DNA of 60,769 bases from a virus (lineage: Duplodnaviria; Caudoviricetes), in IMG/VR virus record IMGVR_UViG_3300043427_002600, positions 1 to 60,769 of that record; one strand, given 5' to 3'. Under the pieces are notes generated by a model. That model did not search any database. It saw only the letters and a program-made list of their open reading frames with translations, and was not told the DNA's origin. Positions within the stretch are counted from its first letter, which is position 1. Every line of letters starts with the position of its first letter. Shown here piece by piece: positions 935-60,769 of the stretch. A program made the translations under genes and the position numbers.

Positions 935-956
935 AGGTTTGTTTTCTTATGAACCT

Positions 957-29096: not shown

Positions 29097-29286
29097 TTAT
29101 CAACTCCTTCAATAAAGATTTAATTTCTTCTATATCAGACTTCATTTTTTCTATTTCATTTTTTTGAGTTTCTCTATTATGCAAACTATTAATATATTGA
29201 TTATACGATTGATTGTCCCGATTTACTATAGCACCGGTGTTTTCATCACGATATAAATTAGGATGTCCCTTTACCCGTATCATCAT
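29083..29286 (-). CDS. Hypothetical coiled-coil protein
   Basis: VKGHPNLYRDENTGAIVN followed by a coiled coil; typical of the gene after VrlC-like. Confidence 0.7.
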   Translation of the reverse strand: MMIRVKGHPNLYRDENTGAIVNRDNQSYNQYINSLHNRETQKNEIEKMKSDIEEIKSLLKELINESK

Positions 29287-44100: not shown

Positions 44101-47100
44101 TAAGCATATATTAAATGTTGTCGTACCTATACCAAAAACATTGTAAGAATTACTGTAAAAACTGTCAATGTAATTAATTGATGAATAATTTATAACTTCT
44201 TTGTCTGCAGTACTAATATATCCAGACTTTTGTAATGAATAAAATAGTGGTGAAGGTATATTGCTATCATAGTTTAAAGATAGTGATGCATTTGTAGTAG
44301 ATACACCTATCGTACCAGTTTTACTTATTGAAAAAGAACTAGTTGATCCAGTTGAAATAAATTCATTATAAAAATCTTGATCATAAAATATCTTAAATTC
44401 ATACCCATAAAGAGATGAGTCCTTCAAATCAAAAATAATGTTATTGTTTTTTATAATTGAAATCGGAGGATTGACCAAAGAAATAACCTGAGAGGATCCA
44501 CCAGTGCTACTAAATGTTAATGTATTGGGCGGATTTGTCTGTACAACATCAGTATAAGTTTCCCCAAGTTTAATTGTGTTATCATTTATTTTGTAAACAA
44601 AGTAAAATCCAGTCGTCAATCCAGATATTACATTATTTGCTGAATATCTGACCTTATCTCCTGTCTTCAATCCATGAGAATTAATTGATATTGTATCAAT
44701 AGAAGCATCAACAACGGAAGAATTAAATTCTATTGGATTAAATAAAATATATTCAGTATCAGCATCCCGCAAAACTTTAATACTTGACGATGATCCGACT
44801 CCTACAGATAAATTTGGTTTAACGAAAAGATTTATAGTATCATTATTGCTAAGATTGTGTGATGTTGATACTGATACTGTTGCAATATTTTTTTGAACAG
44901 ATCCTTTTACTTGATTGAAATTTGATCGTAGAGAATATTGGTAATCATAAGATCCTGGAACAAATGATCTAAAGAATAGTCCATTTGTTGTTGTAGTTAA
45001 TCCAATTTGTGTTACGATTCCAATATAATCTATAGATTTTTTGATGATATAAACAACCTGACTGTTACCACCATCTGGCAAATCAAATGCCACTCCACCC
45101 GACGTAGTACTAACAGAAATATTACTTCCCCCAAGTGCTGGTTTTTGTAATATAACTGGTTGATTTGTTTTAAACGGATGATTTGGCAAATAAATTGACT
45201 GTGTTGGTACTGATACTACATTATTTGTCTGAACACCCACATTATAAGAAATTTGCACATCAACTCCCACTGTTGTACCAATTCCAATCGAATATTGTGG
45301 GTTAAAATAAACTAAATCATTATCTCTAGAATCAAAATAATTTACAGATTTATTAATTGTAAATGAGTCTGGAATAAAATATACTGGTGTTGTTGCAGTA
45401 TGTGGCCCCACTGTCCCAACACTTATCACTCTAACTACATTTTGAGTGTTAAAAATATTAAGAATAGATAAAGTATTTGACCCTATAGTAATGCTGCTAC
45501 CAATGGAAATACTATCAGGAATACTTGAAAGATATACATCAGTTACTATACCACTTGCCAAAGTTGGTAGTTCTTGGAAAAGAGATGAAGTATAAGAAGT
45601 TACTCCAATCCGATTAATCCCATTGAGTGATCCTAAGAAAGTTGATAACCCAGAAACATTAACATAATCTAAATTATTTAAATCATGCTTTGGGGATATC
45701 TTCACCTTTATTTGATTTTTATTTTCCCATTCAAAAATTGTATTATTGTAAGAAAGTGAAGAAGTTTCTATATCTACTATAGATTTTCCTTTAATTTCAG
45801 ATACTTGTGATATTAATCCACCACCTTCAGTATCACTCTGATCGAATAATAATGTTTCTCCAATTTTATAATCTTCCCCAGAATTAATAATATTAAATTT
45901 TTCAATTGATCCGGAAGTAATAGACTCTACAACAGAAAATTGGTTAATGACCTCATTAGACTCAATAATAAAATCATTATTCGCATTAGTATCTCCGATT
46001 TTATACGGAAAAGTGTTTCTAATGAGAGATGAGTTATTAAAATCAAAAGACTGATTTAGTGATCTATTATCTTCAACAAATTTTGAACGGAATCTATTTG
46101 CAATAAAATAAGGATATTTACCTACACTATTTCCATCAACATCTTCTTCGGTAGTAGCAAAATAAGCATAAGTTCCTTTAGGAAATTCTTTTGTTACACA
46201 AAATCTTCCATTATATACATCAAGATCACCTGAATTGGTAAATTCATAATCTTCAATAAAGAACCCCGGGGGAAATAATGAAGAATTTGGCCTGTTAAAA
46301 ACTTTATCTATATTTAATGTGTATCCTGGAGATAAACGTTTTACATTTCCAAGTTCAGACTCTGGATTAGAATAACCAAAAGATCCGTAAATAGGATTAC
46401 CGTCATAAGCCCACCCAATAATAGGGGAGTGTTTAGATCCATCATCGCCAAATTCGTCCTTAATTTTATCAAAATATCCAGAAATACCATATTGCAAATT
46501 ATTATAAGAAGATTTTACAATCTCATTAGATGGTATTATTGAATCGTTAGTTGGGTGAATAGTTCCAAATAATAAATTATCATTTATGGAAAGTGACCTA
46601 ACTTGAACGTCGAAGGCCGCCCCCTTACCAGATGGAGTTATTTCAATTTTAGTATCTTTACTAGAGTATCCAATACCAGTGTTAATAACAATTACATCAG
46701 ATAATTTACCATTTTCTATGACAGGTTTTAATACAGCACCTTTCCCATTTCCCGACAAGTCTATAACGTTAAGATTTGGAGTTGAATAATAATCCTTTCC
46801 CCCATATTGAACAGATACATCCTCTATTCTACCATTTATAATAATGGGTTTGCATTGTGCTTCTTTTCCATTTTTTATTATAATAGAGGGTTTTTTCTGA
46901 TAATTTAGGATAGTTGATCCATAATCGCTACCTTTTTCATAAATGTAAATATCAGTTATTTTTCCTTTTACAATGGGTGTAGAATCAATACTTCCAATAA
47001 ATTGATTTGTGTCTAAACCGACAGGACTATATCTCACTTCTAAAGATATTTCTGGATCATTAAAAATATGATAACCACTACCAATTGTTGATCCCAAACT

Positions 47101-50100
47101 TACAAATTTTCTTCTTTCATAGTTTAATATAGTAGTCCCACCAATTCCTGCATCAGATAATCTGAAAAAATCATCGTCTATCTTTAAAATATAATATTGT
47201 TTTTCGGTTGTTAATCCTGATAATGGATTTCCTGTATTGGAGTATATAATTTTCTCACCATCTTCAAATTTATGTCCGGGAAAATAAATAGTGTCTTTTG
47301 CTGTAGAAATTCCACTAGGTAAAACTCTAAGTTTTCTATTCTTATAATTTTCTCCACCATTGATAACTTTAATTTCACTTAAAGTATTTTTAATTTCTGT
47401 CGCAAATTTTTGAATACCCGCAGCGTTACTAATAGTAAATCCTATTGTGTTAATTCCAGATCTATAATCTGTGATAGACGGATAAAGACGAATCGTGAAA
47501 TTATTTACATATTTTGCAAAATATGATGATCCATCTTTTAAAGTTAATCCAGTATTTGTGTTTGATCCAAGAAAAGTTCCAACTCCAACTGGAGTATTGT
47601 TAAGAGGTCGGTATATAATTTCTTGACCATCTAATAAGTTGTGTTCAGTTAAAAATGTTATTGTTTCTGTGGTGTTATTAACTCCTCCACCAGAGCTTGA
47701 TAATCTAGCATCAAATTCAATCTCTCTTCTTTTTCTTTCAATTATTGGTTGGAACACTGCACCAGATCCATTTCCACCAGTAATAGCAACAGAAACTACT
47801 ACGTCAATATCAAAATTTTGTGGAGTTACATAAACTTTTTCTATAGATCCACTAATGCATGGTTGAATTAATGCTGATCCACTAGAAAGAGATAAATTGG
47901 GAGGATTTATGACATCATAATCACCACCACCACTCAAAACATTAACTTTTTCTAATGGTCCATAATAAATTTTATTAGTTGTCTTATAATTAAATATTTC
48001 AACTCCATTTACAAGCATTCCAATACTTCCAGGAGGAGTTTCCTCAGATTCACCATCACCAATATTAGCATCTAAAGGAAATTTCCTAAGTATTTTTTGT
48101 GCTGATAAAATTCTTTCTTTCTGAGAATTTAAAATAAAGGTGTGAATTCCTTCTGTTAGATCACCAAAATGCAAATAATTTATTGTTCCTATTACAGACC
48201 TGGAACCATACAGTCTAACTTGTAGATTTCCTGGTAAAACTTGGATATAATATATACCTTCTTTTAACCCAGAAATTGGTGTTATTGAGGGTTTATAATA
48301 AATTTCATCACCAGTAAAAAATGAAACTTTATTACTAAAAACAATTAATGAATTTAAATTAGTTTCGGGATCTTTATCAGCAACTCCAAGTGCATCATAA
48401 GAAAATAAAGATTTAGTTATCTCATATGATGGCAATGAATTTGAAGCAATGAACATGTAATCATTATCATCATATACATTTTGAATGTCTGAGGTTATAG
48501 GATTGTAGTCAAATGGTATAGTTGAAGATGATGCGGTTTTAATTTTTCTTCTAATATCATATCTAGAACCAGATGAAAAGGTAACATTATCATCTACACC
48601 AATTTCATATAAATCACTATCGTTAATAGAAATAGAATTTACTTGGAGATTACTTTTTAATATTGTTTGAGTATTTCGGTATAGTAATTCAATAATGTCT
48701 CCGACTTTTAAACTTGATGCATCTACGGGACTTTTTAAAATAATTTGTGAAGTATTTCCTGGAGTAAAATCATCAATTATTTCATATCTGGAACTTGTAT
48801 TATAAATCCAACTATTTGAAAAAATTTCTCTATAAGTTTTATTAGTATCTGGATTTTTGATAATCTTACCGATACTTTTTACTGCTATTTTTTCACCGGC
48901 ACTTATCGGAAAATCAGTTTTAATAGGAATATAATCTGACAAAATACCAGTAATTCTTAATATAACTTTTTTGGAAGTATCACCATTTTCATATCCAAAA
49001 TAAGTATCTTCAGAAAAAATTATCGATGCCACTTCAATGGGGGAAGTTATTCCACTACACCCAAAGAATTGGTTGACGCTCTTATCAGAATAATTTATGA
49101 CATTATTTCCGGAATAAATTATTCCAGATTGTGGAAATCCTATTGTAGAATCAACTGTAATGACAGAACTTCCAATACTAATAGTTTCTAAATTTTTAGT
49201 GCTTCCTGTAATATTAAATTGCCCTGTTATCGGTTCTGGTGGAAGAGTATATCCAAGAAAAAGTAAAAGTTTATAATATGTTTTATTTTTTCTTTTAATT
49301 ATTTCTACTTCTGAAACAGATGCCGTAGTGTTTGAATCTGTTGTTTTTATTATTGTTTGTCCTTCAAGATTAAGTGGATTGCCAGATATTACATCACATA
49401 CGACAATCAATCTTCTAATATAATTTGCAGTTGAAGGTTTAATTAGAAAATTTTCAAGATTAATTATTTTTGGAGTTTCTCCAAATAAAACATTAAACAG
49501 AATTCTAAATGCTTCTTCCGTTCCTTTAGTTTGATATAAAGTTTTTAAAGACTTTATAAAGTTTGATACATTTAGATCAGAAACAAAATTAATATCTTGC
49601 AAATCTGAAGCAAGAGTATATTTTATTTTTTTATAAAATTCCTGTAAAAATAGAGAACTTAAATTATCTACCTTCGATTCGGCATTATGAGATGAAGCAT
49701 CGGAAACTGAAAAAACTAATTCTTCAGCATTTAACTGCTTATGAAAATTCGTGATTCCACTAAATCCTCTAATACAACCAGTAAATGTATTAGTAGTTAT
49801 GCCAGTATATGTAATAATCTCATCATCTATTTTCAATAAACCATATTTTTGAGGGAATCCTTTTGTACTATCAACTTGAATAGTATCACTTATTGCAGAA
49901 ATATTTGCAGAAAGAATTGTAAATCCTGTGATTACCTCTGGTGTTAAATTGTCAAGTTTTAAATACTGATCCAAATTATCAGAAATGTCAATTGAACCAC
50001 CCTGATATTCTTGGGAGATATAATATTGCTTCAAAAAATCCACAGATTTTGGACTTTCATCTAAAATAAATTCTGGTAATTGACTATCAATTATTTGTTG

Positions 50101-50136
50101 AATTTTTACTCTTGATTCAAACCCCGTTTGTATCAT
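38173..50136 (-). CDS. g7: Giant baseplate wedge initiator (gp7-like)
   Basis: 3987 aa between g6 and g8; FLKQYY, KGTEEAFRILF, HSPIIGWAYDGNPIYG, DNDYYQNLSYSIK..HPSGLKNF. Confidence 0.8.
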   Translation of the reverse strand: MIQTGFESRVKIQQIIDSQLPEFILDESPKSVDFLKQYYISQEYQGGSIDISDNLDQYLKLDNLTPEVITGFTILSANISAISDTIQVDSTKGFPQKYGLLKIDDEIITYTGITTNTFTGCIRGFSGITNFHKQLNAEELVFSVSDASSHNAESKVDNLSSLFLQEFYKKIKYTLASDLQDINFVSDLNVSNFIKSLKTLYQTKGTEEAFRILFNVLFGETPKIINLENFLIKPSTANYIRRLIVVCDVISGNPLNLEGQTIIKTTDSNTTASVSEVEIIKRKNKTYYKLLLFLGYTLPPEPITGQFNITGSTKNLETISIGSSVITVDSTIGFPQSGIIYSGNNVINYSDKSVNQFFGCSGITSPIEVASIIFSEDTYFGYENGDTSKKVILRITGILSDYIPIKTDFPISAGEKIAVKSIGKIIKNPDTNKTYREIFSNSWIYNTSSRYEIIDDFTPGNTSQIILKSPVDASSLKVGDIIELLYRNTQTILKSNLQVNSISINDSDLYEIGVDDNVTFSSGSRYDIRRKIKTASSSTIPFDYNPITSDIQNVYDDNDYMFIASNSLPSYEITKSLFSYDALGVADKDPETNLNSLIVFSNKVSFFTGDEIYYKPSITPISGLKEGIYYIQVLPGNLQVRLYGSRSVIGTINYLHFGDLTEGIHTFILNSQKERILSAQKILRKFPLDANIGDGESEETPPGSIGMLVNGVEIFNYKTTNKIYYGPLEKVNVLSGGGDYDVINPPNLSLSSGSALIQPCISGSIEKVYVTPQNFDIDVVVSVAITGGNGSGAVFQPIIERKRREIEFDARLSSSGGGVNNTTETITFLTEHNLLDGQEIIYRPLNNTPVGVGTFLGSNTNTGLTLKDGSSYFAKYVNNFTIRLYPSITDYRSGINTIGFTISNAAGIQKFATEIKNTLSEIKVINGGENYKNRKLRVLPSGISTAKDTIYFPGHKFEDGEKIIYSNTGNPLSGLTTEKQYYILKIDDDFFRLSDAGIGGTTILNYERRKFVSLGSTIGSGYHIFNDPEISLEVRYSPVGLDTNQFIGSIDSTPIVKGKITDIYIYEKGSDYGSTILNYQKKPSIIIKNGKEAQCKPIIINGRIEDVSVQYGGKDYYSTPNLNVIDLSGNGKGAVLKPVIENGKLSDVIVINTGIGYSSKDTKIEITPSGKGAAFDVQVRSLSINDNLLFGTIHPTNDSIIPSNEIVKSSYNNLQYGISGYFDKIKDEFGDDGSKHSPIIGWAYDGNPIYGSFGYSNPESELGNVKRLSPGYTLNIDKVFNRPNSSLFPPGFFIEDYEFTNSGDLDVYNGRFCVTKEFPKGTYAYFATTEEDVDGNSVGKYPYFIANRFRSKFVEDNRSLNQSFDFNNSSLIRNTFPYKIGDTNANNDFIIESNEVINQFSVVESITSGSIEKFNIINSGEDYKIGETLLFDQSDTEGGGLISQVSEIKGKSIVDIETSSLSYNNTIFEWENKNQIKVKISPKHDLNNLDYVNVSGLSTFLGSLNGINRIGVTSYTSSLFQELPTLASGIVTDVYLSSIPDSISIGSSITIGSNTLSILNIFNTQNVVRVISVGTVGPHTATTPVYFIPDSFTINKSVNYFDSRDNDLVYFNPQYSIGIGTTVGVDVQISYNVGVQTNNVVSVPTQSIYLPNHPFKTNQPVILQKPALGGSNISVSTTSGGVAFDLPDGGNSQVVYIIKKSIDYIGIVTQIGLTTTTNGLFFRSFVPGSYDYQYSLRSNFNQVKGSVQKNIATVSVSTSHNLSNNDTINLFVKPNLSVGVGSSSSIKVLRDADTEYILFNPIEFNSSVVDASIDTISINSHGLKTGDKVRYSANNVISGLTTGFYFVYKINDNTIKLGETYTDVVQTNPPNTLTFSSTGGSSQVISLVNPPISIIKNNNIIFDLKDSSLYGYEFKIFYDQDFYNEFISTGSTSSFSISKTGTIGVSTTNASLSLNYDSNIPSPLFYSLQKSGYISTADKEVINYSSINYIDSFYSNSYNVFGIGTTTFNICLSSFPEKNSYSVSECDILEYTTSSQSSSGGVSKVKIVSPGSNFKKLPIFNGIESDSGSGAYIIPDSTQIGKINQIRILNEGFEYSSDKTLRPEASISKFYSIKNSNTIDSIGIINAGKNYISSPDLIIVNSDNRNVIDSGLLIPNLSQSGSIESVTIDSPPKGLPETIVTLRTINNTNGVGIKTVQSSSSGIVTCALLTPASGFLIEPFSVGDKIFVEGIQKETTDGSGFNSEDYGYQFFDVVGYTSSISGSSAILTYDLSGITTNPGVPKVIENNYGVVINYNDYPRFNITQDFSSFILGEPVQVKVQDEFTIQDLVITESNENYVKLFGTYDLQSNQIIRGSQSGTIASIDNVKECSGQFKIDYGKITEVGWYDDIGKLNDDTQVISDNDYYQNLSYSIKTNKEWNDIVSPVNNILHPSGLKNFADTQIIKGVNVNSISVNSNQFAESIFTIIEEQRADTVNNYDLVVDVDTFGDRSKYLKFKNKKLSNYFKAISNRVLDIDQINSEFSNSNQELAASSKVTDIVSTRKFNRYLVQISNKNLTEFQFTELIILNNDSEIFILERGTVDSRISSESGYETNTIGDFSGYINNDTDECYLKFEPKDSFVSSYNIKYLNNTFTNSTTGIGTTNIGFVSLIGVTTTVSAGSTVTLLEKSSSVLDSLYSMIHITDDSNGEMNYSEIFVDHDGTNTNISEFYFDTNDGLSSNFIGTFGSFISGGIIKINYTNNSSNNVTIRTKNVGFSTISVGLQTYRFKLDGQIDGFENTILFNSSYKNVSTASTVISLNNNIFSSVKSSIKVSVGGTSALHQVVLVSDGINPTILQYPFLSIGSTLGIGSFGGEISGSELILKFYPDPSFTGNNFEIISFNEIFYRENDYINLPPPDLEYANILESVGVSRYISVNDDDINKKIFALRYQGTSIFAKQFNPSDSSVLNLSTGEFNIPNHFFSTGEELIYEPKSTFIGVAATAVGIGATLNYVGVVTNILPERVYAIKINNDKFKISTREEYANSGISVTFTSLGSGNAHQFEMLKKNEKSIITISNIVQEPISYALLNYTINNGSQVGSSTTTFGLSGISSIRIGDLLKVDSEYMKVINVGLGTSYSGPISFAGTFPLVSVERGSVGSSATTHSNSGIASVYRGSFNIVGSNIYFSDTPQGSLEDQLFDDDDALPESRDYFSGRVFLRKNYDDNKVYDNISEQFTGIGQTYKLTVSGNNIVGLGTSGISGLVFINGIFQTPTTENNPNNNFAITEDQISGISSITFSGITSSNGSVVISESDVNLNQLPRGGLIVSLGSSGGLGYAPLVGASVTAIIGAGGSIVSVGIGTSGDLYTGNWGSGYRSPISIGITEIGHVGSSATITASVGAGGSLSFTIVNGGTGYVSPIINISSPSYSNLPIVGVSRLSVGSTTDCGIGILMDIDVGASSTTGIGSTLFEVKNFKIKRNGYGFEKGDVFKPVGLVTAKGIPNPISEFEITVLDTFTDSFSAWQFGQIDYIDSVKNYQDGSRTRFPLYYNGNLLSFERDGSDLDSQLINFNSLLIIFINGILQNPGESYQFDGGTSFVFTEPPKEEDNVAIYFYRGSSEDSSQILIYETLKIGDDVQVFSNNAYLGITTTQNSRTVTDILTSSTIETNLYFDKGVDSINYKPVSWIKQKTDKFINGNLVSKSRDSIETQIYPTAKIIKTFDENDDEIFVDSISLFNYENVLPGEIDFDALIVSGADDPVSAAVTAVVSAAGTVQSLVITNIGSGYTGSSINVNISSPPKIGAGIGTVATASISIVNGSLSSTTITNPGLGYTTNNPPQVLVPLPSPIYENITNITGIAGTIGTIVGIGTTVGVGTALAINFTINLTGLSTGYPLYVFNTKVGNGVTTILSNNLDIVGIGTTCLDNIYIISGINPSTGVVTCNIHSGSSIVGIATTGVVGKFSWGKISGFNRSSSPISIGISGFTVDSGLSTFPIMQRRGYGLRSVGPIIK

Positions 50137-53611: not shown

Positions 53612-54364
53612 TTAAATTACTCTTGATTTTTCGTGACCAACTCTAATACGTGGATCGCACCAAATTTCAAAGCCTGCTTCCTTTGCATCTAAACAGAAAG
53701 ATACGTCTTCTCCACACATATCTTGAACATTTCCAGATTCAAAAACTTGCATTTTAGGAGCAAACCAAGGATATTTCATTTCTGAATGTTCAAAAACACC
53801 ATGCTTAATAAGAACCCAACCAAATCCAGTATAATCAACTGTAAATGGTTTGCGACGCTTCGAAATACTTTCAACGGTTTCGTGATTCATTACACCACCA
53901 TTGCTTCTGAAATCATCTTCTTCCAACCAATGTGCAACTGATGTAGTATGCCCATCTTCTGTAGCATACCAACCAGCAGCAATATCCTTATCCATTAATA
54001 CCAATTGGAAAAATTTTTCAGTATTAAAAACAATGTCAGAATCAATCCAAAGTTGCCAATCATATTTCAGTTTTCCATCCCAAGGAATTTGGTCAGGTCC
54101 TCTGAGAACATTTGCTCCCAAACACTTACATCTTGCAAAATTAACCATTGAGGAATAATCTTGTGAGATTTGAATGCTTGCTCCAGATTGAACTAAGTCA
54201 AAACAAAGTTGAACAAAACTTTTTAAAAACTGATATGAGACTCCTCTTCCAGGAAGACAAAAAACAATTGACTTGCCCTTTATCAGTTCCTTGGCAAGAT
54301 CATAGTCCCATTCTTGTTGTATTTGTGTAGGCGCTTTTGCCTTTACTGTAAATCCTTTAGACAT
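53612..54364 (-). CDS. GT-A fold glycosyltransferase-like protein
   Basis: WIDSDIVF (DxD), TGFGWVLI, GEDVSFC, VGHEK. Confidence 0.8.
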   Translation of the reverse strand: MSKGFTVKAKAPTQIQQEWDYDLAKELIKGKSIVFCLPGRGVSYQFLKSFVQLCFDLVQSGASIQISQDYSSMVNFARCKCLGANVLRGPDQIPWDGKLKYDWQLWIDSDIVFNTEKFFQLVLMDKDIAAGWYATEDGHTTSVAHWLEEDDFRSNGGVMNHETVESISKRRKPFTVDYTGFGWVLIKHGVFEHSEMKYPWFAPKMQVFESGNVQDMCGEDVSFCLDAKEAGFEIWCDPRIRVGHEKSRVI

Positions 54365-54386
54365 AAGATAACTTGTTTACTTCAGT

Positions 54387-54415
54387 ATCATACTCTATTA
54401 TGTAGTGCTTGTCAA
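54387..54415 (-). promoter_or_regulatory. Sigma70 promoter
   Basis: TTGACA-N17-TATGAT upstream of the glycosyltransferase. Confidence 0.8.
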
Positions 54416-54586
54416 TTACTTTCTTTCTGAAAGAATAACTTCATTACCTTCTATTGAAAGGTTAATTTGCGTATCCTCGTACCATTCCAATTCATTCATA
54501 ATTTGCTCTGAGATTTTAATGTAGTAGTCTCCGCTAATTGGATCAACTTCTATGGATTCGAAAATATCTCCGGAATTTTTTTTCAT
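54416..54586 (-). CDS. AbrB/MazE/SpoVT-like small DNA-binding protein (56 aa)
   Basis: Manual translation MKKNSGDIFESIEVDPISGDYYIKISEQIMNELEWYEDTQINLSIEGNEVILSERK; swapped-hairpin pattern. Confidence 0.65.
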   Translation of the reverse strand: MKKNSGDIFESIEVDPISGDYYIKISEQIMNELEWYEDTQINLSIEGNEVILSERK

Positions 54587-54752
54587 TTCGGGTATTTTAT
54601 TTTTTACTTTTTCGATATTATATATGGGGAAAAATTTTTTAATTAAGTCTTATAAAACACTAGCGAAAGCAAGACTTTGTAGCCTAAGGGGTCCCATGGG
54701 TTTAATATACGCGCCCGCGCCGACGACCCCCCACCCCCCGCCAACTGCCGAT

Positions 54753-54796
54753 CACGAACGAACGCACTGCCCCCCACGAACGAACGCAGGGGGCAG
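54753..54796. repeat. 14-bp direct repeat plus GC hairpin
   Basis: CACGAACGAACGCA at 54753 and 54775; CTGCCCCC/GGGGGCAG stem encloses the second copy. Confidence 0.75.
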
Positions 54797-54803
54797 GAGG
54801 TGC

Positions 54804-55013
54804 TCACCCCTGGGAACTGCGCCACCCGCTGATGGGGCAGCGACCCACCTCATCGGCATGGACCTCAGCGTACTGGGCGGCGATGACCGTAGCGGGCAGA
54901 CCCCAGTGGATGTATGCCGAAGGGCGGGAACCGTTCTTCAGTTGATCGGCACGGGAGATCCAACGAATCTCACGGGTCACGAGGTCGGAGCACTGGGCGA
55001 GTGGGAAACGCAT
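54804..55013 (-). CDS. Early cassette protein (69 aa)
   Basis: MRFPLAQCSDL...; ATG 12 nt after the leader repeat. Confidence 0.6.
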   Translation of the reverse strand: MRFPLAQCSDLVTREIRWISRADQLKNGSRPSAYIHWGLPATVIAAQYAEVHADEVGRCPISGWRSSQG

Positions 55014-55082
55014 TGGAGGGGTTCGGAACTGAGAGAATTGTAGCACGAATCGGGCGGGGGTCAGTACCCCACCCCCCACGAA

Positions 55083-55271
55083 TCAGTACCCCAACCAGAC
55101 CAGGAACTCACCAGCATCAACGGGACCGAAGCGGGCGGTTGTGCCGTAGTCGGTGCGGAAGTCATCCCAGAGACCGTGTTCCTTTGCTGCCTGGCAGGCG
55201 GCAGACCAGCGGATGCACCCGTTCTCATCGGCGCAGTTCCAGACGATGGCGGGGAAGGTGGAGCAGTGCAT
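55083..55271 (-). CDS. Early cassette protein (62 aa)
   Basis: MHCSTFPAIVWNC...GEFLVWLGY; follows the repeat. Confidence 0.65.
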   Translation of the reverse strand: MHCSTFPAIVWNCADENGCIRWSAACQAAKEHGLWDDFRTDYGTTARFGPVDAGEFLVWLGY

Positions 55272-55321
55272 CGGTTCGGGGTGTGAACTGAGAGAATTGT
55301 ACAGGGTCAGAGGGGGAGAGG

Positions 55322-55534
55322 TCAACCCCCGCCGAAGACGTGGGCGACCAGACCAGCGGGATGGTTGACGCCTTCGATCACCGTGAATTCGGCGTACTTA
55401 TCGAAGTCGTCGGCGTGGTATGCTCCGAACTGCTCAATCCAGATGGCGCGGGCAGCGTCCTTCGATTCGGCAGCGATGACCGCCATACCAGCGGTGTAGT
55501 CGGAGAGCACTTCGTTCAGGATGTAGAGGTTCAT
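55322..55534 (-). CDS. Early cassette protein (70 aa)
   Basis: MNLYILNEVLSDYTAGMAVIAAES...; follows the repeat. Confidence 0.7.
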   Translation of the reverse strand: MNLYILNEVLSDYTAGMAVIAAESKDAARAIWIEQFGAYHADDFDKYAEFTVIEGVNHPAGLVAHVFGGG

Positions 55535-55573
55535 CGGTGGGGGTGTCGGTTGAACTGAGTGTATTGTAGCAGG

Positions 55574-55780
55574 TCAGGCGGCGTAGCAGTGGAGATTGAC
55601 CCACCGCCCCAGGGACAGATTCGAATCCAGGAGCAGCAGCAGAATCTCCAGGCGGGATGCCTTCAAGCGGTAGAGGCGGGCAGGAGTCTTATGAAAGCGG
55701 ACGCGAACGCTACCCGTGATGGGGTTGGCGATCAGGGTGTCGATGGCGTTGCTGTCGCTGGTATTGATGGGGTAGCGCAT
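55574..55780 (-). CDS. Early cassette protein (68 aa)
   Basis: MRYPINTSDSNAI...SLGRWVN; follows the repeat. Confidence 0.65.
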   Translation of the reverse strand: MRYPINTSDSNAIDTLIANPITGSVRVRFHKTPARLYRLKASRLEILLLLLDSNLSLGRWVNLHCYAA

Positions 55781-55824
55781 CGGGTGGGTTGCGGTTGAGA
55801 GTATTGTAGCAGGTCGGGGGCGGG

Positions 55825-55986
55825 TCAGCGCCCCTCAGTGTAGTCTCCGATGATGACCCCGTTGCAGCGGACCTGGGCGTACCCGTACTCTTCAGACAGA
55901 GACAGGCAGAGGTCCCAAGCGCGATCCTGATCGGTGGTGGTGTTCTCCCAGGGAGCGGAGGGGCAGATCACGTCGTAGCGGGTCAT
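55825..55986 (-). CDS. Early cassette protein (53 aa)
   Basis: Manual: MTRYDVICPSAPWENTTTDQDRAWDLCLSLSEEYGYAQVRCNGVIIGDYTEGR. Confidence 0.65.
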   Translation of the reverse strand: MTRYDVICPSAPWENTTTDQDRAWDLCLSLSEEYGYAQVRCNGVIIGDYTEGR

Positions 55987-56062
55987 TTGGTTTCCTTTGA
56001 ACTGAGATCAGTATAGGGCATCAGGGGCGCCGCGGCCAACGGGGTGGGCGGTTCCCTGACCG

Positions 56063-56578
56063 TCACACCAGGCGGCGACCGTGGCGGCGGATCTCACCAG
56101 CGGAGAGAGTCACACCGATGCGGGGGTCCTTTGCCTTGCCGTTGCGCTTGGCGGCGTACTGGCGTTGCGCCTTCGGCAGGATCAGGGAGAGCACCGTGTC
56201 GGCGTCCAGGACCCACACCTCAGCGACCCGTGCGCCTTCATAGCGGGCGTAGTAGTGGCGGGCATAGGCGCCGATCTTATGGTCGATCAGGTATGCTTCC
56301 TGATCCTCCCAGGTCGGTTGAACGCTGATCCCATTGTAGGTTGCGCTGATAGCGCCGCCGATTGTGGATTTGTACTCTACAGGGGTCCCGTCTGCTTCGT
56401 AGGCGTCTGCGCCGCTGTAGGAGTCTGCGACGGTGTGCCCCAGCAAGCAGGCAAGGTGGATCTCCCTGCTGCGGGCATAGGACATCGGATCACCAGCGTT
56501 CAGGGCGTCTGCTGCTTCATACAGGGCGGCGAAGGCGTCCAGGTACTGCTGCTGGGCGGTGGTGAGGGTGGCGGTCAT
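56063..56578 (-). CDS. PD-(D/E)xK nuclease-like protein
   Basis: 171 aa; RSRE...GADAYEADGTPVEYKST motif. Confidence 0.55.
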   Translation of the reverse strand: MTATLTTAQQQYLDAFAALYEAADALNAGDPMSYARSREIHLACLLGHTVADSYSGADAYEADGTPVEYKSTIGGAISATYNGISVQPTWEDQEAYLIDHKIGAYARHYYARYEGARVAEVWVLDADTVLSLILPKAQRQYAAKRNGKAKDPRIGVTLSAGEIRRHGRRLV

Positions 56579-56611
56579 CGGTGGGGGTTGAACTGGGTTA
56601 ATTGTAGCAGG

Positions 56612-56821
56612 TCAGGCGGCGCAGAGTCCATAGGATGCTGCCAGGTCGTAGAGGGCATCCAGGATGGCGACCTGATCATCATCCAACCATTCAGTGCCAC
56701 ACTGAGCGCAAACCCAATCCCAAACCAGATCGTAGTTGTAGTCTGTGCCCATCTCAAGCATAAAGGCGGGCAGTCCTTGCATTGCGCTGCGGAACTGGTC
56801 GTCGGTGGGGATGGTGATCAT
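56612..56821 (-). CDS. Early cassette protein (69 aa, acidic)
   Basis: MITIPTDDQFRSAMQGLPAF...; follows the repeat. Confidence 0.65.
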   Translation of the reverse strand: MITIPTDDQFRSAMQGLPAFMLEMGTDYNYDLVWDWVCAQCGTEWLDDDQVAILDALYDLAASYGLCAA

Positions 56822-56861
56822 CGGATCGGGTCGGTTGAGAGTATTGTAGCAGGTCGGGGGA

Positions 56862-57041
56862 TCACTCCATCCCCATCGCTTCCTTCAGGGCATTGTAGGC
56901 GCTCAACCAATGGTCGGCGTCGGCATGGTTGCCTTTAGTGCTCTCATCGCAGGCGATGCAGAGCAGGGCAGTGCGGATGGTGCCCCACTTGCCCTCGGGC
57001 AGGGTGACGGTGGTGAGGGTGTTGGGGTTCCAGGCGGTCAT
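56862..57041 (-). CDS. Early cassette protein (59 aa)
   Basis: Manual: MTAWNPNTLTTVTLPEGKWGTIRTALLCIACDESTKGNHADADHWLSAYNALKEAMGME. Confidence 0.65.
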   Translation of the reverse strand: MTAWNPNTLTTVTLPEGKWGTIRTALLCIACDESTKGNHADADHWLSAYNALKEAMGME

Positions 57042-57107
57042 CGGGGTCGTTTGAACTGAGATCAGTATAGAGGCAAAAGGGAGGGGGTGTGCCCCTCCGT
57101 TGTGCCA

Positions 57108-57206
57108 CTATTCAGGTTGGTCGGCGGCGATGGATTCCAGGATGCTCAGGATCTCATCGCCGTTGGTTCCTTGGCGGAGCAGGGAGAGGGCAAGGGACAG
57201 GGACAT
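57108..57206 (-). CDS. Early cassette micropeptide (32 aa)
   Basis: Manual: MSLSLALSLLRQGTNGDEILSILESIAADQPE. Confidence 0.55.
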   Translation of the reverse strand: MSLSLALSLLRQGTNGDEILSILESIAADQPE

Positions 57207-57269
57207 TAGGATTCGGGGGATAGAGTGTGCTGGGAGTCTTTAGGGCGCTCCCGTTCCCATTGTAGCAGG

Positions 57270-57431
57270 TCAGGCGATCCAACCCTGCTGGCGGCGCTTC
57301 TCAGCGTGGCAGGCGATGCGGAACTCCTTAGGGGTCAGGGATGCTTGTCCAGGGCGGGGACCGCGACTGGGGAGGCGGGTGATCTTGAATTCACCGGCGG
57401 CGATGGCGGCGTTCAGTTCAGCAGAGGTCAT
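57270..57431 (-). CDS. Early cassette protein (53 aa, basic)
   Basis: Manual: MTSAELNAAIAAGEFKITRLPSRGPRPGQASLTPKEFRIACHAEKRRQQGWIA. Confidence 0.6.
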   Translation of the reverse strand: MTSAELNAAIAAGEFKITRLPSRGPRPGQASLTPKEFRIACHAEKRRQQGWIA

Positions 57432-57464
57432 CAGGTCCGTTGCGGTTGATCGTATTGTAGCAGG

Positions 57465-57605
57465 TCAGGGTGCCAGGTGAGCAGGCGATCCGCAGGAGCG
57501 GTAGAAGGCGACCATAGACTCTGCCTCTGCCAGAGTGCGGAAGAACTGGGAGCGCCACTCACAGGCGTTGTAGGGGGTCTGATAGCGGACTTCGTAGCGG
57601 GTCAT
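57465..57605 (-). CDS. Early cassette protein (46 aa)
   Basis: Manual: MTRYEVRYQTPYNACEWRSQFFRTLAEAESMVAFYRSCGSPAHLAP. Confidence 0.65.
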   Translation of the reverse strand: MTRYEVRYQTPYNACEWRSQFFRTLAEAESMVAFYRSCGSPAHLAP

Positions 57606-57675
57606 CGGATCAGGTCGGTTGAACTGGGTTAATTGTAGCAGGTGGAGGGGGTCGGGTGACCCCCTGGAGAATCGC

Positions 57676-57840
57676 TCAGGCAGGGATCAGGATGTCGTTC
57701 TCCCAGCGGGCATTCTCCAGGATCTCATCGTATGCCACCTGCAGGGCGCGTTGGGCGTCTGCCTTCAGGATGGCGTTGCGGCACTGGGCGGCGATCTCCT
57801 CAATGTTCAGGGCGCGGTCGGTGGAGGGGTTGTAACGCAT
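57676..57840 (-). CDS. Early cassette protein (54 aa)
   Basis: Manual: MRYNPSTDRALNIEEIAAQCRNAILKADAQRALQVAYDEILENARWENDILIPA. Confidence 0.65.
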   Translation of the reverse strand: MRYNPSTDRALNIEEIAAQCRNAILKADAQRALQVAYDEILENARWENDILIPA

Positions 57841-57917
57841 TTGAAGTTCGGGGTTGTTTGAACTGAGAGTATTGTAGGGCAGTTTAGGGTCGTGCCCAGG
57901 ACCGTTGTGCCAGTGCC

Positions 57918-58103
57918 TCAGGCGGCACAGAGGGCGGATTCCAGGCAGACCTCCCGCACTTCGATCAGGGCATAATCGTATCCCTCATCCTCCGTCAGGT
58001 GCTGGTGGTAGGCGTCAGCAGCAGACTTGCAATCGAACAGGCGCAGGGAGTGGAAGGACTCGCCTTCATAATCCCAACCACCGATCACAGCGTAGACTTT
58101 CAT
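57918..58103 (-). CDS. Early cassette protein (61 aa)
   Basis: MKVYAVIGGWDYEGE...; follows the repeat. Confidence 0.7.
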   Translation of the reverse strand: MKVYAVIGGWDYEGESFHSLRLFDCKSAADAYHQHLTEDEGYDYALIEVREVCLESALCAA

Positions 58104-58181
58104 CGCGGGTCGTTTGAACTGAGAACAGTATAGGGGGTCAGAGAGGGGGCAGGATGCCCCCGTGTGCCAGTTGTTCGGGCG

Positions 58182-58268
58182 TCACATCCAACCGCATTTG
58201 GGGCAGGCGGGGTGTCCCTTGCAGGGGCAGGATGCGGCAACGGTCAGGGGGTCGTTGGAGCGGATCAT
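58182..58268 (-). CDS. Cys-rich micropeptide (28 aa)
   Basis: Manual: MIRSNDPLTVAASCPCKGHPACPKCGWM. Confidence 0.5.
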   Translation of the reverse strand: MIRSNDPLTVAASCPCKGHPACPKCGWM

Positions 58269-58349
58269 CGGGGTTCCTTTGAACTGAGAGAATTGTAGCA
58301 GGGAGGTCTTACCGATGCAACGCTAACGTGCCTCCCGTGTGCCAGTGCC

Positions 58350-58541
58350 TCAATCGGCGTAGAGGGATTGGAAGTCCTCCACAAACTCCCGTGCCTCATC
58401 GCCCGTCATGCGGGAGAGCATCTCACGGGCAACGGTCTCCCAGGAGAACTGATCGGCAAGGTCACAGATGGCGGCACGTGCCTGAGAGGCGCTCAGGTGG
58501 GCGGCGGTGATCTCAGCGTAGGTCATTTCCAGGCGGGACAT
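58350..58541 (-). CDS. Early cassette protein (63 aa)
   Basis: MSRLEMTYAEITAAHLSASQAR...; start placed just after the repeat at 58554. Confidence 0.65.
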   Translation of the reverse strand: MSRLEMTYAEITAAHLSASQARAAICDLADQFSWETVAREMLSRMTGDEAREFVEDFQSLYAD

Positions 58542-58593
58542 GGTGGGTTGGTTGAACTGAGTTAATTGTAGCATGGATCGGGGGGTGGCGCCC

Positions 58594-58833
58594 CTAGAAC
58601 GCCACCAGTTGGTCCACTTCCCATTGCGGCACAGTCTGGACGGTGCCGCCGCAGTTCTTCCGCAACCAGGCGTTGATGTGCTTGCTGGTGGTCGTGGAGT
58701 AGAACTGCTCGGTCCGCATCCAACCCCGACCAGGCACCAGGGCGGCAACGGGGGTGCTGTAGGAGTAGAGCACCTCAGTGCCGTCTGCCAGGGTGACCTG
58801 GGTGCTGGTGGTGGTGACTTGCTGGACCTTCAT
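58594..58833 (-). CDS. Early cassette protein (79 aa)
   Basis: LYSYSTPVAA...YSTTTSKHIN, a motif pattern recurrent in small phage proteins. Confidence 0.7.
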   Translation of the reverse strand: MKVQQVTTTSTQVTLADGTEVLYSYSTPVAALVPGRGWMRTEQFYSTTTSKHINAWLRKNCGGTVQTVPQWEVDQLVAF

Positions 58834-58881
58834 GGTGAGTTCCTTTGAACTGAGTTAATTGTAGCAGGTGGCGGATGCCAA

Positions 58882-59028
58882 TCAGCGGCAGTCCTGTGAC
58901 ACTTCACAGATCGTCACAGCAAGGCGGTCGGCATTCGCTTTGGCAACCTGCAGGGAAGCGGTCAGGATGCCGCCTCCGATCCACAGGAGCAGCAGGGTGA
59001 CACCAGCAGGGATGATCAGGCGGGTCAT
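58882..59028 (-). CDS. Small membrane protein (48 aa)
   Basis: Manual: MTRLIIPAGVTLLLLWIGGGILTASLQVAKANADRLAVTICEVSQDCR; N-terminal hydrophobic helix. Confidence 0.6.
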   Translation of the reverse strand: MTRLIIPAGVTLLLLWIGGGILTASLQVAKANADRLAVTICEVSQDCR

Positions 59029-59086
59029 TGGAGTTCCTTTGATCTGGAATCAGCATAGGGCATCAAGGATCCCCCGCAACCAGGTC

Positions 59087-59146
59087 TGTGCCAGTTCAGA
59101 AAGTGGCACAGGACCCCTCCCAGTGCCCCTGCAGTGCCTTTATAAT
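59087..59146. promoter_or_regulatory. Perfect dyad TGTGCCA-N10-TGGCACA serving divergent promoters
   Basis: Dyad at 59087-59110; minus -10 (TATGCT) 30 bp to the left; plus-strand TATAAT at 59141-59146, 31 bp to the right. Confidence 0.65.
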
Positions 59147-59238
59147 AAAGGGACAATCGGCAAAGACGGCAGCAGGGTCGCTGCCTGATCAAAGGTCGTC
59201 ACGGGGGCAGCTTTAAAATAATAAAAAAAGAAAAGTAT

Positions 59239-59266
59239 AAAAAAGGGAGGGCACCACCCCTCCCCG
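59239..59266 (-). terminator. Rho-independent terminator
   Basis: GGGAGGGGTGGTGCCCTCCC followed by a T tract, after the 59315 stop. Confidence 0.7.
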
Positions 59267-59314
59267 ATTATACCCACCAGAAGGCAGTTTAACGACCTGC
59301 CCAGGTCGCAAGTG

Positions 59315-60211
59315 TTACGCTACAGTTTGAAACTTACCGAAGTTGAAGTTGGCGTAAGCGAAGACCTCACGATTCACCAGTTTGAACATACCGAACTCAT
59401 TGGTGAGAACGTAACCCTCAGCATCAATACGGTTGCCGTTGATGTATGCTGCAGGACCATCATTGCGGCACAGGAACAGGCAATCTTCCTTAATGGACTT
59501 CACCAGCAACCACAAACGGATCAGGTTAGGATCACACTCAAAGTCATCTTCGTGAATCCTCATCCCAGCACGAATACGGGCGTTGATTTGCTTTTTGATC
59601 TCTGCTGCTTTCCTATCAGTTACGAACTGAACAGCAAGTGACAATGCACGGGCGAACTTGCACACCTCCTCAACATCAGCGAAGGATTCCTGATTGTGAG
59701 CGATGAATGCATTCGGTTTCACGAACTTGACGTGCTCGGTATCATTCCAGATTGCACGATCAGGGTATGCCTCAGCATCACGAAGATCGCTCTCAGCATA
59801 ATAGCAGGTGTGCGGAGCGATGATAATGTTCTGGGAAACTACCTCAGGAAAAACATACGTGATCGTGTTGGACTTGTACTCACAAAGTCCACCGAACCCG
59901 ATGAAGTCTGCCTGATAGATCGTTTCGGTACGGGGCAGATGATCAAAGCACGAATGAAGAATCTGCGCTACATTGCCTTCATAGAACTGATCAATCTCTT
60001 CGTGATTGTGAGCAATACGAATCTTCTTCTTGTTGAAGACTGCTTTGGTTCCTACAAAGAACTCGCCGCAGGCAGGATCAATGCCCCACACGATGGCGGG
60101 CGCTCCGTCGATCTTGACGGACAGGGAACCAGGCGTCACGAACCAGTCCAGCACGGACAGGTCGCCGTTCAGGATCGTGTCTTCGGGGTGCTCCAGGTGG
60201 GTGTTCTTCAT
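59315..60211 (-). CDS. Conserved phage protein (DUF6267-like) with ligase/nucleotidyltransferase-type motifs
   Basis: MKNTHLEHPED, VKIDGAPA (KxDG), EGYV, KLVNR. Confidence 0.7.
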   Translation of the reverse strand: MKNTHLEHPEDTILNGDLSVLDWFVTPGSLSVKIDGAPAIVWGIDPACGEFFVGTKAVFNKKKIRIAHNHEEIDQFYEGNVAQILHSCFDHLPRTETIYQADFIGFGGLCEYKSNTITYVFPEVVSQNIIIAPHTCYYAESDLRDAEAYPDRAIWNDTEHVKFVKPNAFIAHNQESFADVEEVCKFARALSLAVQFVTDRKAAEIKKQINARIRAGMRIHEDDFECDPNLIRLWLLVKSIKEDCLFLCRNDGPAAYINGNRIDAEGYVLTNEFGMFKLVNREVFAYANFNFGKFQTVA

Positions 60212-60277
60212 CGGGTAGTTTGCTTATGAACGTAGTATGGCACGAACAGGGGGGGCATCGCAACCCCCCTTGTGATA

Positions 60278-60565
60278 CTACACGAACTGGCACACGGGCA
60301 GCGCCACTTCGGTCATGAGTACGCTCTCCTGACGGAAGGCGGTTTTGAATGCCTCAGCGATCTCTGCCACGCTGTCGCTGTCGTCGGTGATAAAGGTCAG
60401 GATCGTAACCTGCTCTTGATCACCCTTCCAGAATCCCACGCCTTCGGTGACGGTGAACCCATCGAAGCGGGGGCAGACTTCCTCACGAATGAAGGTCTGC
60501 ATCATTGCCTTGGTCACGGTGCCAGAGTCGGGGATGTTGCGACCGAGGAACAGTTGGAATTGCAC
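60278..60565 (-). CDS. DUF3574/PII-like fold protein, candidate SAM lyase
   Basis: LFLGRNI, EGVGFWKGDQE, FRQESVL; GTG start after the repeat. Confidence 0.6.
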   Translation of the reverse strand: MQFQLFLGRNIPDSGTVTKAMMQTFIREEVCPRFDGFTVTEGVGFWKGDQEQVTILTFITDDSDSVAEIAEAFKTAFRQESVLMTEVALPVCQFV

Positions 60566-60635
60566 GGGGGTTTCCCTGAACTGAATTCAGTATGGCAGGG
60601 GCAGGGCACGAATGCAACCACCCCTGTGCCACTTG

Positions 60636-60769
60636 TCAGACTGTCACACCCTCCACCAGTTCCTGAATGACATCTTCATCATACACATTGGCGATCTCAT
60701 TGAGAACATCTTCAGGTCCCATGTTCCTCATGTTCTCTACAATCGTATCATAGGCAAATTGCACCAGGC
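60636..60769 (-). CDS. 3' end of an acidic early protein (partial)
   Basis: Manual: ...LVQFAYDTIVENMRNMGPEDVLNEIANVYDEDVIQELVEGVTV*. Confidence 0.6.
   Translation of the reverse strand, partial: LVQFAYDTIVENMRNMGPEDVLNEIANVYDEDVIQELVEGVTV

Follow-up and report, generated by a model that had tools for sequence, protein, structure and literature searches.

An array of one-gene cassettes behind a repeated promoter-like module in a freshwater T4-like cyanophage

The locus and its repeated module

The DNA studied here is a single contig of 60,769 bp that makes up the entire assembly of the virus record IMGVR_UViG_3300043427_002600; we call it the window, and all window coordinates are positions in this contig. 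At 54804-60647 on the minus strand, which also carries all its long open reading frames (ORFs), the window contains an array of 19 one-gene units, which we delimited by reading that strand through and aligning the units on a hexamer resembling a -10 promoter box. The array occupies a guanine-plus-cytosine (GC)-rich island (54710-60769, minus strand, running to the contig end), a hyperplastic region between a DUF6267 gene and the baseplate module. The first 25 kb of the window, with structural and replication genes, match the Synechococcus phage S-SRM01 (Kyanoviridae; a freshwater isolate with a genome of 240,842 bp) at about 80% nucleotide identity, and S-SKS1 and P-SSM2 are more distant matches. 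Because of these matches we take the window to be a fragment of a T4-like cyanomyovirus near S-SRM01; it encodes T4-like core genes, recombination genes among them, at the same level of identity.

The module is roughly 60-70 bp long, recurs every 200-300 bp, and consists, in this order, of an often present ACTGGCACA box, a GC hairpin, the -10 box, CTCAGTTCAA, a short CA-rich leader and the ATG, which in the window units lies 27-36 nt from the first base of the -10 box. The core string TACAATNNNYTCARYY, with at most one mismatch, has 16 matches in the window versus 2.59 expected (standard deviation 1.54; maximum 7 in 100 shuffles). Thirteen of the 16 fall at 55027-58863 on the minus strand, one of them being an offset duplicate. 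A weight matrix covering positions -9 to +21 found 17 copies, all on the minus strand between 54.8 and 60.6 kb, with none on the plus strand or in the other 54 kb of the window, a result that is partly circular because the matrix was trained on IMG/VR copies together with those of the window.

In the average of 446 copies, a G-rich tract at -29 to -25 and a C-rich tract at -17 to -9 make up the hairpin, TGACC stands immediately 5' of the -10 box, and CA.AC at +16 to +20 is conserved though the search did not require it; the leader is nearly devoid of G and T. The TAYAMT form of the -10 box was imposed by the search, but flanking positions that were not imposed are also conserved. No -35 box is conserved. 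The 50 nt upstream of the -10 box fold at -14.7 kcal/mol, versus -11.7 for shuffled sequences (Wilcoxon p = 4e-34) and -12.4 inside cargo ORFs. Judging the folds by eye, we found a clear GC hairpin in about 11-12 of the 17 window modules and none at all in four units; only two hairpins in the island are followed by a T-run. A hairpin at the 5' end of the leader (GTTC...GAAC) is not a general feature: of 419 leaders, 142 contain GAAC, only slightly more than contain its permutations.

In 162 of 561 modules, a TGGCAC box precedes the -10 box by 36-40 nt and stands just before the hairpin. The ACTGGCACA sites of the window are all on the minus strand (992-1000, 57906-57914, 58163-58171, 58338-58346 and 59087-59095), and others occur in the loci L001 and L155 (6278-7741 of the latter). 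They show a strand bias genome-wide, with 13 forward and 1 reverse in S-SRM01 and 9 versus 2 in P-SSM2, and the reversed control gave 0. P-SSM2, a marine phage, has the architecture of box, hairpin with T-run, TATAAT, leader and ATG upstream of homologous small genes, without CTCAGTTCAA. The box might act as an upstream element of the promoter, bind a factor or belong to a terminator; we found no mention of it in the literature searched.

We number the units from the upstream end and give weight-matrix scores in bits; all lie on the minus strand. Unit 1 (60278-60633; 15.0 bits) has the box as AGTGGCACA (60633-60625), a -35-like TTGCAT, the -10 box CATACT (60594-60589), the leader TTCAGTTCA and a GTG start at 60565, which opens a 95-aa ORF (60278-60565) with a DUF3574 domain and likeness to S-adenosylmethionine (SAM) lyases. 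Unit 2 (59315-60239) has CATACT at 60239-60234 and a variant leader without CTCAGTTCAA before a 298-aa DUF6267 ORF (59315-60211), and unit 3 (58882-59095; 18.4 bits) has ACTGGCACA at 59095-59087, TATGCT at 59057-59052, a degenerate leader and a 48-aa hydrophobic ORF. The sequence TGCTACAAT, followed by CTCAGTTCAA, serves unit 4 (58594-58863, -10 box starting at 58863; 79-aa ORF, phrog_5643; 34.2 bits), unit 5 (58350-58570, -10 at 58570; preceded by a hairpin; 63 aa; 28.9 bits) and unit 6 (58182-58346, -10 at 58297; preceded by ACTGGCACA at 58346-58338 and a hairpin; a Cys-rich ORF of 28 aa; 38.0 bits). Unit 7 (57918-58171, -10 at 58132; 40.6 bits) combines ACTGGCACA (58171-58163), a GC hairpin of 7 bp, TATACT and CTCAGTTCAA before a 61-aa ORF (phrog_17343), and unit 8 (57676-57914, -10 at 57876; 34.6 bits) has ACTGGCACA (57914-57906), TACAAT, CTCAGTTCAA and a longer leader before 54 aa. 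Unit 9 (57465-57637, -10 at 57637; 30.8 bits) has a hairpin, TGCTACAAT and CCCAGTTCAA before 46 aa.

From unit 10 on, several upstream stop codons run straight into the module as TGA-CC-TGCTACAAT. This is the case for unit 10 (57270-57459, -10 at 57459; CAACC leader variant; 53 aa; 16.1 bits), unit 11 (57108-57264, -10 at 57264; no CTCAGTTCAA, a 52-nt leader and 32 aa; negative score), unit 14 (56063-56606, -10 at 56606; CCCAGTTCAA; 171 aa, phrog_35715; 34.4 bits) and unit 17 (55322-55568, -10 at 55568; CTCAGTTCAA; 70 aa; 39.1 bits). Unit 12 (56862-57109, -10 at 57069; 39.0 bits) begins with AGTGGCACA (57109-57101) and a terminator-like hairpin with T-run (57098-57080), followed by TATACT, CTCAGTTCAA and a 59-aa ORF. 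A hairpin, TGCTACAAT and a CTCAACC leader variant precede both the 69-aa ORF of unit 13 (56612-56848, -10 at 56848; phrog_714; 27.7 bits) and the 68-aa ORF of unit 16 (55574-55808, -10 at 55808; phrog_7365; 27.8 bits). The remaining units are unit 15 (55825-56015, -10 at 56015; TATACT, CTCAGTTCAA, 53 aa; 39.2 bits), unit 18 (55083-55301, -10 at 55301; TGTACAAT, CTCAGTTCAC, 62 aa; 40.7 bits) and the last cassette, unit 19 (54804-55042, -10 at 55042; hairpin, TGCTACAAT, CTCAGTTCC, 69 aa; 29.4 bits). The array is closed by a terminal GC hairpin (54767-54796, minus strand) whose 5' arm and loop have the same sequence as stretches that precede several of the -10 boxes.

An original prediction, made by inspecting the sequence, had described about 19 mutually unrelated one-gene cassettes, mostly of 28-95 aa, each behind the same promoter and leader. 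We counted 19 units, 17 of them with ORFs in that size range, and no two window cargo ORFs fall in one blastp family. The four stop-codon fusions it reported are exact (at 55574, 56612, 57270 and 57465). Its statement that the ATG soon follows the leader without an obvious Shine-Dalgarno sequence also agrees with our data: the ATG lies 10-17 nt past CTCAGTTCAA, and a 4-mer Shine-Dalgarno core occurs in 4 of the 16 window units scanned and 41 of the 542 cassettes overall, versus 8 of 26 core genes. The claim that the module stands before every gene needs qualification, as there are 17 full copies and the units at 60239 and 57264 have a -10 box without the CTCAGTTCAA leader. As for its anatomy, the repeat itself is confirmed, but the prediction missed the upstream GC hairpins, the TGGCAC box at its fixed distance and the GC-rich island, whose contrast in GC at third codon positions (0.73 versus 0.20) we consider the most unusual trait of the block, and it did not recognise that only about one third of the -10 boxes carry a TG extension.

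Distribution of the array and exchange of cassettes

We found the core motif in at least 120 IMG/VR stretches, many with three to nine exact copies. The locus comparisons that follow rest on the IMG/VR matches listed, among which 451 copies were found by regular expression; 417 of these are followed by a complete ORF (median cargo 63 aa), with the ATG 27-33 nt from the -10 box in 386 of the 417. The array has a characteristic genomic slot. Of the 43 loci with a homologue of the DUF6267 gene, 42 have most modules downstream of it; in the window this conserved upstream flank is unit 2. In 58 of 58 loci the array lies upstream of phrog_1574, gp25-like and gp6-like (baseplate) genes. Of the words sampled from the region, 85-87% are present in four freshwater metagenome runs, which belong to two studies. 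A longer form of the motif was sought in 596 Gb of prokaryote genomes and had 31 single, taxonomically scattered matches, which is chance level, and none of the 31 is in a picocyanobacterial genome. We regard the array as real, phage-specific and widespread, and the module as not a host element.

We found no cultured phage with a comparable array: a BLASTN search of the island against 50,697 phage records returned only gene-sized matches with 65-76% identity. The two modules found in S-SRM01 are at the syntenic place, in DNA with a GC content of 0.42-0.49. A gene for an HNH endonuclease, on the opposite strand, adjoins them (30169-30606 of L001).

The 542 cassettes (module plus ORF) from all sources comprise 127 families, including 53 singletons. 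Their order is highly variable: among 94 loci with at least two cassettes there are 82 distinct cassette orders, and although some adjacencies recur, common families have up to 10-13 different neighbours. The cassettes of the window recur in 10-24 loci each, at other positions, and BLASTN matches between the window and its relatives are cassette-sized–for unit 9, they cover only the ORF, elsewhere in the array.

Pairs of closely related contigs show what happens at the joints. L055 and L112, which are 97-99% identical, differ by one cassette of about 300 bp that sits inside the equivalent of the window's terminal hairpin and is flanked by a 28-bp direct repeat. L038 differs from L112 by three single-cassette indels, one of them involving a cassette homologous to unit 6 (in L038, absent from L112); repeats of 22-24 bp, containing the -10 box or the leader, mark the junctions of two of the indels, and at the third a 33-bp stretch is replaced. 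In L056 and L065, flanks with 95-98% identity enclose different cassettes, with identity resuming 8 bp before the -10 box, and L045 and L090 are a further pair with break-points in the module. The unit 1 cassette is present in L118 and L083 and absent from L048, L023 and L017, and the junctions in L048 and L023 overlap in the module. In sum, single-cassette differences between near-identical contigs are flanked by repeats of 22-30 bp inside the module, which supports exchange of single cassettes through it.

More generally, 33% of 718 internal match ends lie within -15 to +35 of a -10 box, versus 10.6% of random points in the same islands, an enrichment of about threefold. The upstream 30 nt of the module co-vary with the gene family upstream, and the core and leader with the family downstream, as expected if exchanges fall near the -10 box. 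We consider the flanking direct repeats to be stronger evidence for exchange than the enrichment of match ends. The original prediction had proposed that the repeat is both promoter and recombination joint, and had set a comparison of relatives by motif model as its test. That comparison found gain, loss, replacement and reordering of cassettes with break-points at the motif, so the structural and evolutionary half of the proposal is upheld.

At 90% likeness to the window, contigs from two metagenome runs, X1 and X2, show many cassette-scale joints, for instance from 55297 to 55825, 55986 to 57045 and 60254 to 60613, with most sides shorter than 30 letters. For at least one of them, between 55986 and 57045, an alternative source is a relative's unit that has a different leader and maps to a near-identical module. 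Summed depth in X1 and X2 is higher over the island than over its flanks, but depth of this kind cannot rank parts and we draw no conclusion from it. A joint that goes back from 58346 to 58063 is ambiguous, and the Logan contigs are heavily fragmented across the island. We treat the cassette-scale joints in X1 and X2 as weak hints, consistent with exchange.

Composition, promoter class and cargo

The GC content of the window is 0.30-0.36 over positions 1-54,700, about 0.60 over 54,800-59,200 and 0.46-0.57 beyond. By codon position it is 0.59/0.45/0.73 in the 19 island ORFs, versus 0.44/0.38/0.20 in 18 core genes. The contrast is general: over 84 loci with at least three modules, plus the window, mean island GC is 0.556 versus 0.384 in the downstream flank, and 48 of 53 downstream flanks are below 0.45. 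Median GC at third codon positions (GC3) is 0.71 for the 542 cassettes (5th-95th percentile 0.43-0.83), and the backbone flanks have a median GC of 0.37; cassette GC3 does not rise with the GC of the backbone flank (r = -0.25, n = 314). Because it does not follow the flanks upward, and because orthologous cassettes have diverged to 70-90% nucleotide identity yet are GC-rich, we read the composition as maintained and not as a fresh import. The composition is not invariant. In L114, L012, L008, L104 and L064 the same box, -10 box and TTCAGTTCAAACAAACCA leader precede cargo with a GC3 of only 0.25-0.6, so it is the module, and not the GC content, that is constant. The host-like GC of the cargo may reflect adaptation of immediate-early genes to host translation, or may be a by-product of a high recombination rate; the raised GC at first and second codon positions (GC1 and GC2) also suggests biased conversion, or that the cassettes have long been under a GC-rich regime.

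Cyanomyoviruses have been argued to keep AT-rich genomes and to use their own tRNAs in GC-rich hosts (PMC3152331). The early genes of Syn9 have a severe codon mismatch with at least one resistant host, Synechococcus RS9917 (PMC11726456), and differences in codon use between phage and host have been considered as an influence on host range and resistance (PMC3152331, PMC11726456). A phage whose early genes match its host would be solving the problem in another way. We found no tRNA genes in the window, and no report of GC-rich early islands in cyanomyoviruses in the literature searched.

Six copies of the T4-type late promoter TATAAATA lie on the coding strand (13004, 14383, 14395, 30314, 38155 and 52544, minus strand), before structural genes such as the gp25-like gene at 52514, and there are none on the other strand of the window or in the island. 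The island, lacking these late promoters, would therefore use a different promoter class. Cyanomyoviruses do not have alt, modA/B, motA or asiA, and it is believed that the host's sigma-70-type polymerase transcribes their early genes in unmodified form (PMC2984593). A host sigma-70-type promoter fits the -10 box of the module, and transcripts beginning at the A or G of CTCAG would have leaders of 15-21 nt. That the modules are used as promoters, early in infection and with one start per unit, is suggested by this consensus and by analogy with S-PM2 and Syn9, in which host-type boxes before non-structural genes have been proposed as early promoters, distinct from the NATAAATA late promoter that is also present in the window (PMC2984593). 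The available part of that paper does not describe those motifs as a dense cassette array, a conserved leader or a recombination joint.

The cargo proteins resemble few known families: 17 of the 19 units have no Pfam family, and 10 of the 19 fall in PHROGs of no assigned function. Unit 1 has a match to PF12098 (62 bits) and one to PF23780, the SAM lyase family, that is below the cut-off (20.5 bits, cut-off 28); 12 of 48 relatives have a precomputed PF23780 match. Its structure model (pLDDT, the predicted confidence score, of 86) has as its best PDB match the phage SAM lyase 6ZNB (E = 3.6e-4, TM score 0.58), but generic PII/ferredoxin-like folds score nearly as well. Unit 1 is possibly an anti-restriction gene, and it is the one, weak case for anti-defence or host-takeover cargo in the array. 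Unit 2 has a strong match to PF19782 (DUF6267; 253 bits) and about 65% nucleotide identity to an S-SRM01 gene (80841-81725); its structure model (pLDDT 49.5) was too poor for a fold search, and sequence searches of the PDB with units 1 and 2 gave nothing useful. Homologs of unit 4 occur in many unrelated phages, and unit 14 has 65% amino acid identity to a P-SSM2 protein.

Interpretation and related systems

We favour, as the probable explanation, a hyperplastic region between the DUF6267 and baseplate genes that holds about 19 self-contained early-expression cassettes shuffled through their shared module. Unmodified host RNA polymerase would read the module promoters right after infection, making the cargo early proteins; the G-run/C-run hairpin may insulate or attenuate transcription; and T4-type recombination between modules would delete, insert, replace and reorder single cassettes while leaving each gene correctly expressed. 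Several observations weigh against this explanation. The loci were picked by the motif itself and many are near-duplicates, so that they are not independent. Modules are few in the cultured relatives, with two in S-SRM01 (in the 41-kb stretch examined), none in S-CREM1 and one weak copy in S-SZBM1. About two thirds of the copies have neither a TG extension nor a -35 box, so the modules might need an activator or might not be plain host promoters, although the ACTGGCACA box or the conserved start region may compensate for the missing -35. Terminator function is doubtful for most hairpins because a T-run follows only two and four units have no hairpin. The co-variation of module segments with neighbouring gene families is a small effect, and the function of the cargo lacks an assignment in 17 of 19 units. 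Finally, the enrichment of match ends does not by itself prove that the module causes exchanges, because intergenic DNA in the island is almost all module and selection for intact genes favours the same break-points.

This last point is also what favours a rival explanation, in which the module is only a strong, conserved early promoter and leader and turnover is illegitimate recombination filtered by selection for intact genes, any viable break-point falling in the module without the module being a causal joint. Module identity from cassette to cassette, at 0.37-0.40 over the upstream 30 nt outside the 19-nt core, leaves only about 20-30 bp of good homology. Yet the indels between contigs that are 97-99% identical have the signature of repeat-mediated exchange in their flanking module repeats, and less than 50 bp of homology has been argued to be enough for the T4 recombination system (PMC2839356), so we think this rival unlikely. 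Another rival is a system like that of integrons, with the GC hairpins or the ACTGGCACA box as the sites of a dedicated recombinase or endonuclease; hairpins and a box at a fixed position do accompany many cassettes. An HNH endonuclease gene adjoins the two S-SRM01 modules, and a hairpin-binding protein was a speculation of the authors who described promoter early stem-loop (PeSL) elements (PMC2839356). The array resembles integron cassettes in that each unit holds one gene, units are gained, lost and reordered one at a time, and structured repeats separate them. Unlike integron cassettes, however, each has its own -10 box, the joints are homologous repeats rather than attC sites and fall at the -10 box, the leader or the hairpin loop instead of at one fixed site, and searching the 19 island ORFs with Pfam and PHROGs gave no gene for an integrase, recombinase or endonuclease. 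We give such a system very little weight.

Two further rivals concern the origin of the island as a whole. Its GC3 and its raised GC1 and GC2 look like foreign DNA and some cargo families are spread over unrelated phages, as would be expected if the block were a recent insert captured whole from a GC-rich cyanophage or host. We find this quite improbable, given that the array occupies the same slot in nearly every locus, that relatives with 70-90% nucleotide identity keep the high GC3, that the module was not found in picocyanobacterial genomes, and that it also occurs in AT-rich settings (window 1000-932, L114, L012 and S-SRM01). Nor do we give appreciable credence to an assembly chimera, a GC-rich contig misjoined to an AT-rich phage contig. 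GC content does change abruptly at 54710 and the Logan contigs are fragmented across the island, but contigs of X1 and X2 bridge the step (54036-54777 and 54036-54739, although the window itself may come from one of these runs), the same GC-rich array adjoins the same AT-rich flanking genes in dozens of IMG/VR contigs that were assembled separately, and the isolate S-SRM01 has the module at the syntenic place.

The closest known system is the PeSL, a conserved composite of a sigma-70-like early promoter and a G...C stem-loop that is concentrated in hyperplastic regions, flanking ORFans, and that mediates indels and replacements between close relatives (PMC2839356, PMC4122927). PeSL shuffling has been documented in T4-like phages of enterobacteria and vibrios, in the pairs RB49/phi1, PST/T4 and nt-1/KVP40 (PMC2839356, PMC4122927). 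The intergenic element of the array is likewise a composite, of a putative sigma-70-like promoter and a G-run/C-run stem-loop, repeated densely around small ORFans in a hyperplastic region; the array has 17 modules in 5.8 kb between conserved genes, and its 19 cassettes in that space make it denser than an RB49 example with eight PeSLs in about 5 kb (PMC2839356). As with PeSLs, single ORFs are inserted, deleted or replaced from one close relative to another, the joints lying within the element, and this phage has T4-type recombination genes. Unlike PeSLs, the array has no conserved -35 box or AT-rich upstream tract and its -10 is only partly TG-extended; its repeat includes the conserved, putatively transcribed CTCAGTTCAA and CA-rich leader as well as the upstream ACTGGCACA box; most of its hairpins have no T-run; and it is a GC-rich island of host-like codons in the AT-rich genome of a phage whose host is a cyanobacterium. 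The features that define PeSLs also include a strong promoter and a stem-loop acting as terminator, both by reporter assay, and mini-circles of excised cassettes; in the array the promoter and terminator activities are putative.

The original prediction had called the array a cyanophage counterpart of PeSLs. Of the four PeSL features that we tested, out of six defining ones, three are present (stem-loop, hyperplastic location and break-points in the element) and the promoter consensus agrees in part, with no conserved -35 and a TG extension on some boxes only. The analogy is stronger than the prediction could tell, as in most units a G-run/C-run hairpin immediately precedes the promoter. We consider a PeSL-like array in freshwater T4-like cyanophages to be real and widespread on present evidence, and a variant of the PeSL shuffling known from phages of enterobacteria and vibrios, with a leader, a box and a codon island. 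A related region is the 'ORFanage' of S-PM2, also a T4-like cyanophage, which contains small genes of no known function, is dispensable and has homologs in freshwater metagenomes; it has few PeSL-like elements and acquisition through them was judged unlikely (PMC4503421, the one cyanophage study considering PeSLs that our literature search turned up), in contrast to the module before nearly every gene here. In the literature searched we found no report of PeSL-type shuffling in cyanophages or of this module, and searches with its sequence strings returned primers only; Doron et al. 2016 (the Syn9 transcriptome) and Dreher et al. 2011 (S-CRM01) could describe related motifs.

A broader picture, which we offer tentatively and think rather less than even in its chances, is that AT-rich freshwater cyanomyoviruses have a dedicated, recombination-prone 'immediate-early expression platform'. 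Its cassettes would be held at a host-like GC3 of about 0.7, versus 0.2 in the backbone, by the need for translation with host tRNAs before takeover or by GC-biased conversion resulting from hyper-recombination. A phage-specific 5' tag (AGUUCAA...) on every message might serve preferential translation or protection from infection-induced RNA decay, and co-infecting phages might trade a common pool of host-takeover and anti-defence genes through the module. The codon contrast bears on the way in which AT-rich cyanomyoviruses, before phage tRNAs can be used, express the first of their genes in GC-rich Synechococcus. Public metagenomes already hold hundreds of natural variants, so gain, loss and exchange of cassettes can be studied as a population process. 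The approximately 127 families of small, probably early proteins are a catalogue for screening for host-takeover and anti-defence functions, and the module could serve as a compact expression signal for picocyanobacteria.

Some features lie outside the array or touch single units. A composite module outside the island, in the AT-rich part of the window (932-1000, minus strand), consists of ACTGGCACAC, a hairpin with T-run, TATAAT at 962-957, a leader and an ATG at 934. A search of 54000-60769 for Rfam families found nothing credible. The ORFs truncated at either end of the contig (2-934 and 60636-60767, minus strand) share a frame across the ends, but we rejected a circular contig: synteny with S-SRM01 puts the ends about 65 kb apart and makes the window a fragment of a genome of about 240 kb, so the shared frame is probably chance. 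Between units 2 and 3, a non-coding gap (59030-59314, minus strand) contains an AT-rich patch, a TATAAT-like box directly before the region's strongest T-run terminator (59265-59244), and the inverted repeat GTGCCA...TGGCAC. Either a small RNA or a decayed cassette might lie there. Read by eye, the unit 2 protein has a K-x-D-G-like motif reminiscent of motif I of ligases and nucleotidyl-transferases. A C-terminal Ala-Ala occurs in 32 of 417 cargo ORFs, versus about 1% expected, and is confined to 6 of 109 families; in window units 7, 13 and 16 the codons GCC-GCC-TGA run directly into the next module. The window also has two giant ORFs on the minus strand, of 2421 aa (29283-36548) and 3987 aa (38173-50136), the larger of which matches an S-SRM01 gene annotated as 'baseplate wedge initiator'.

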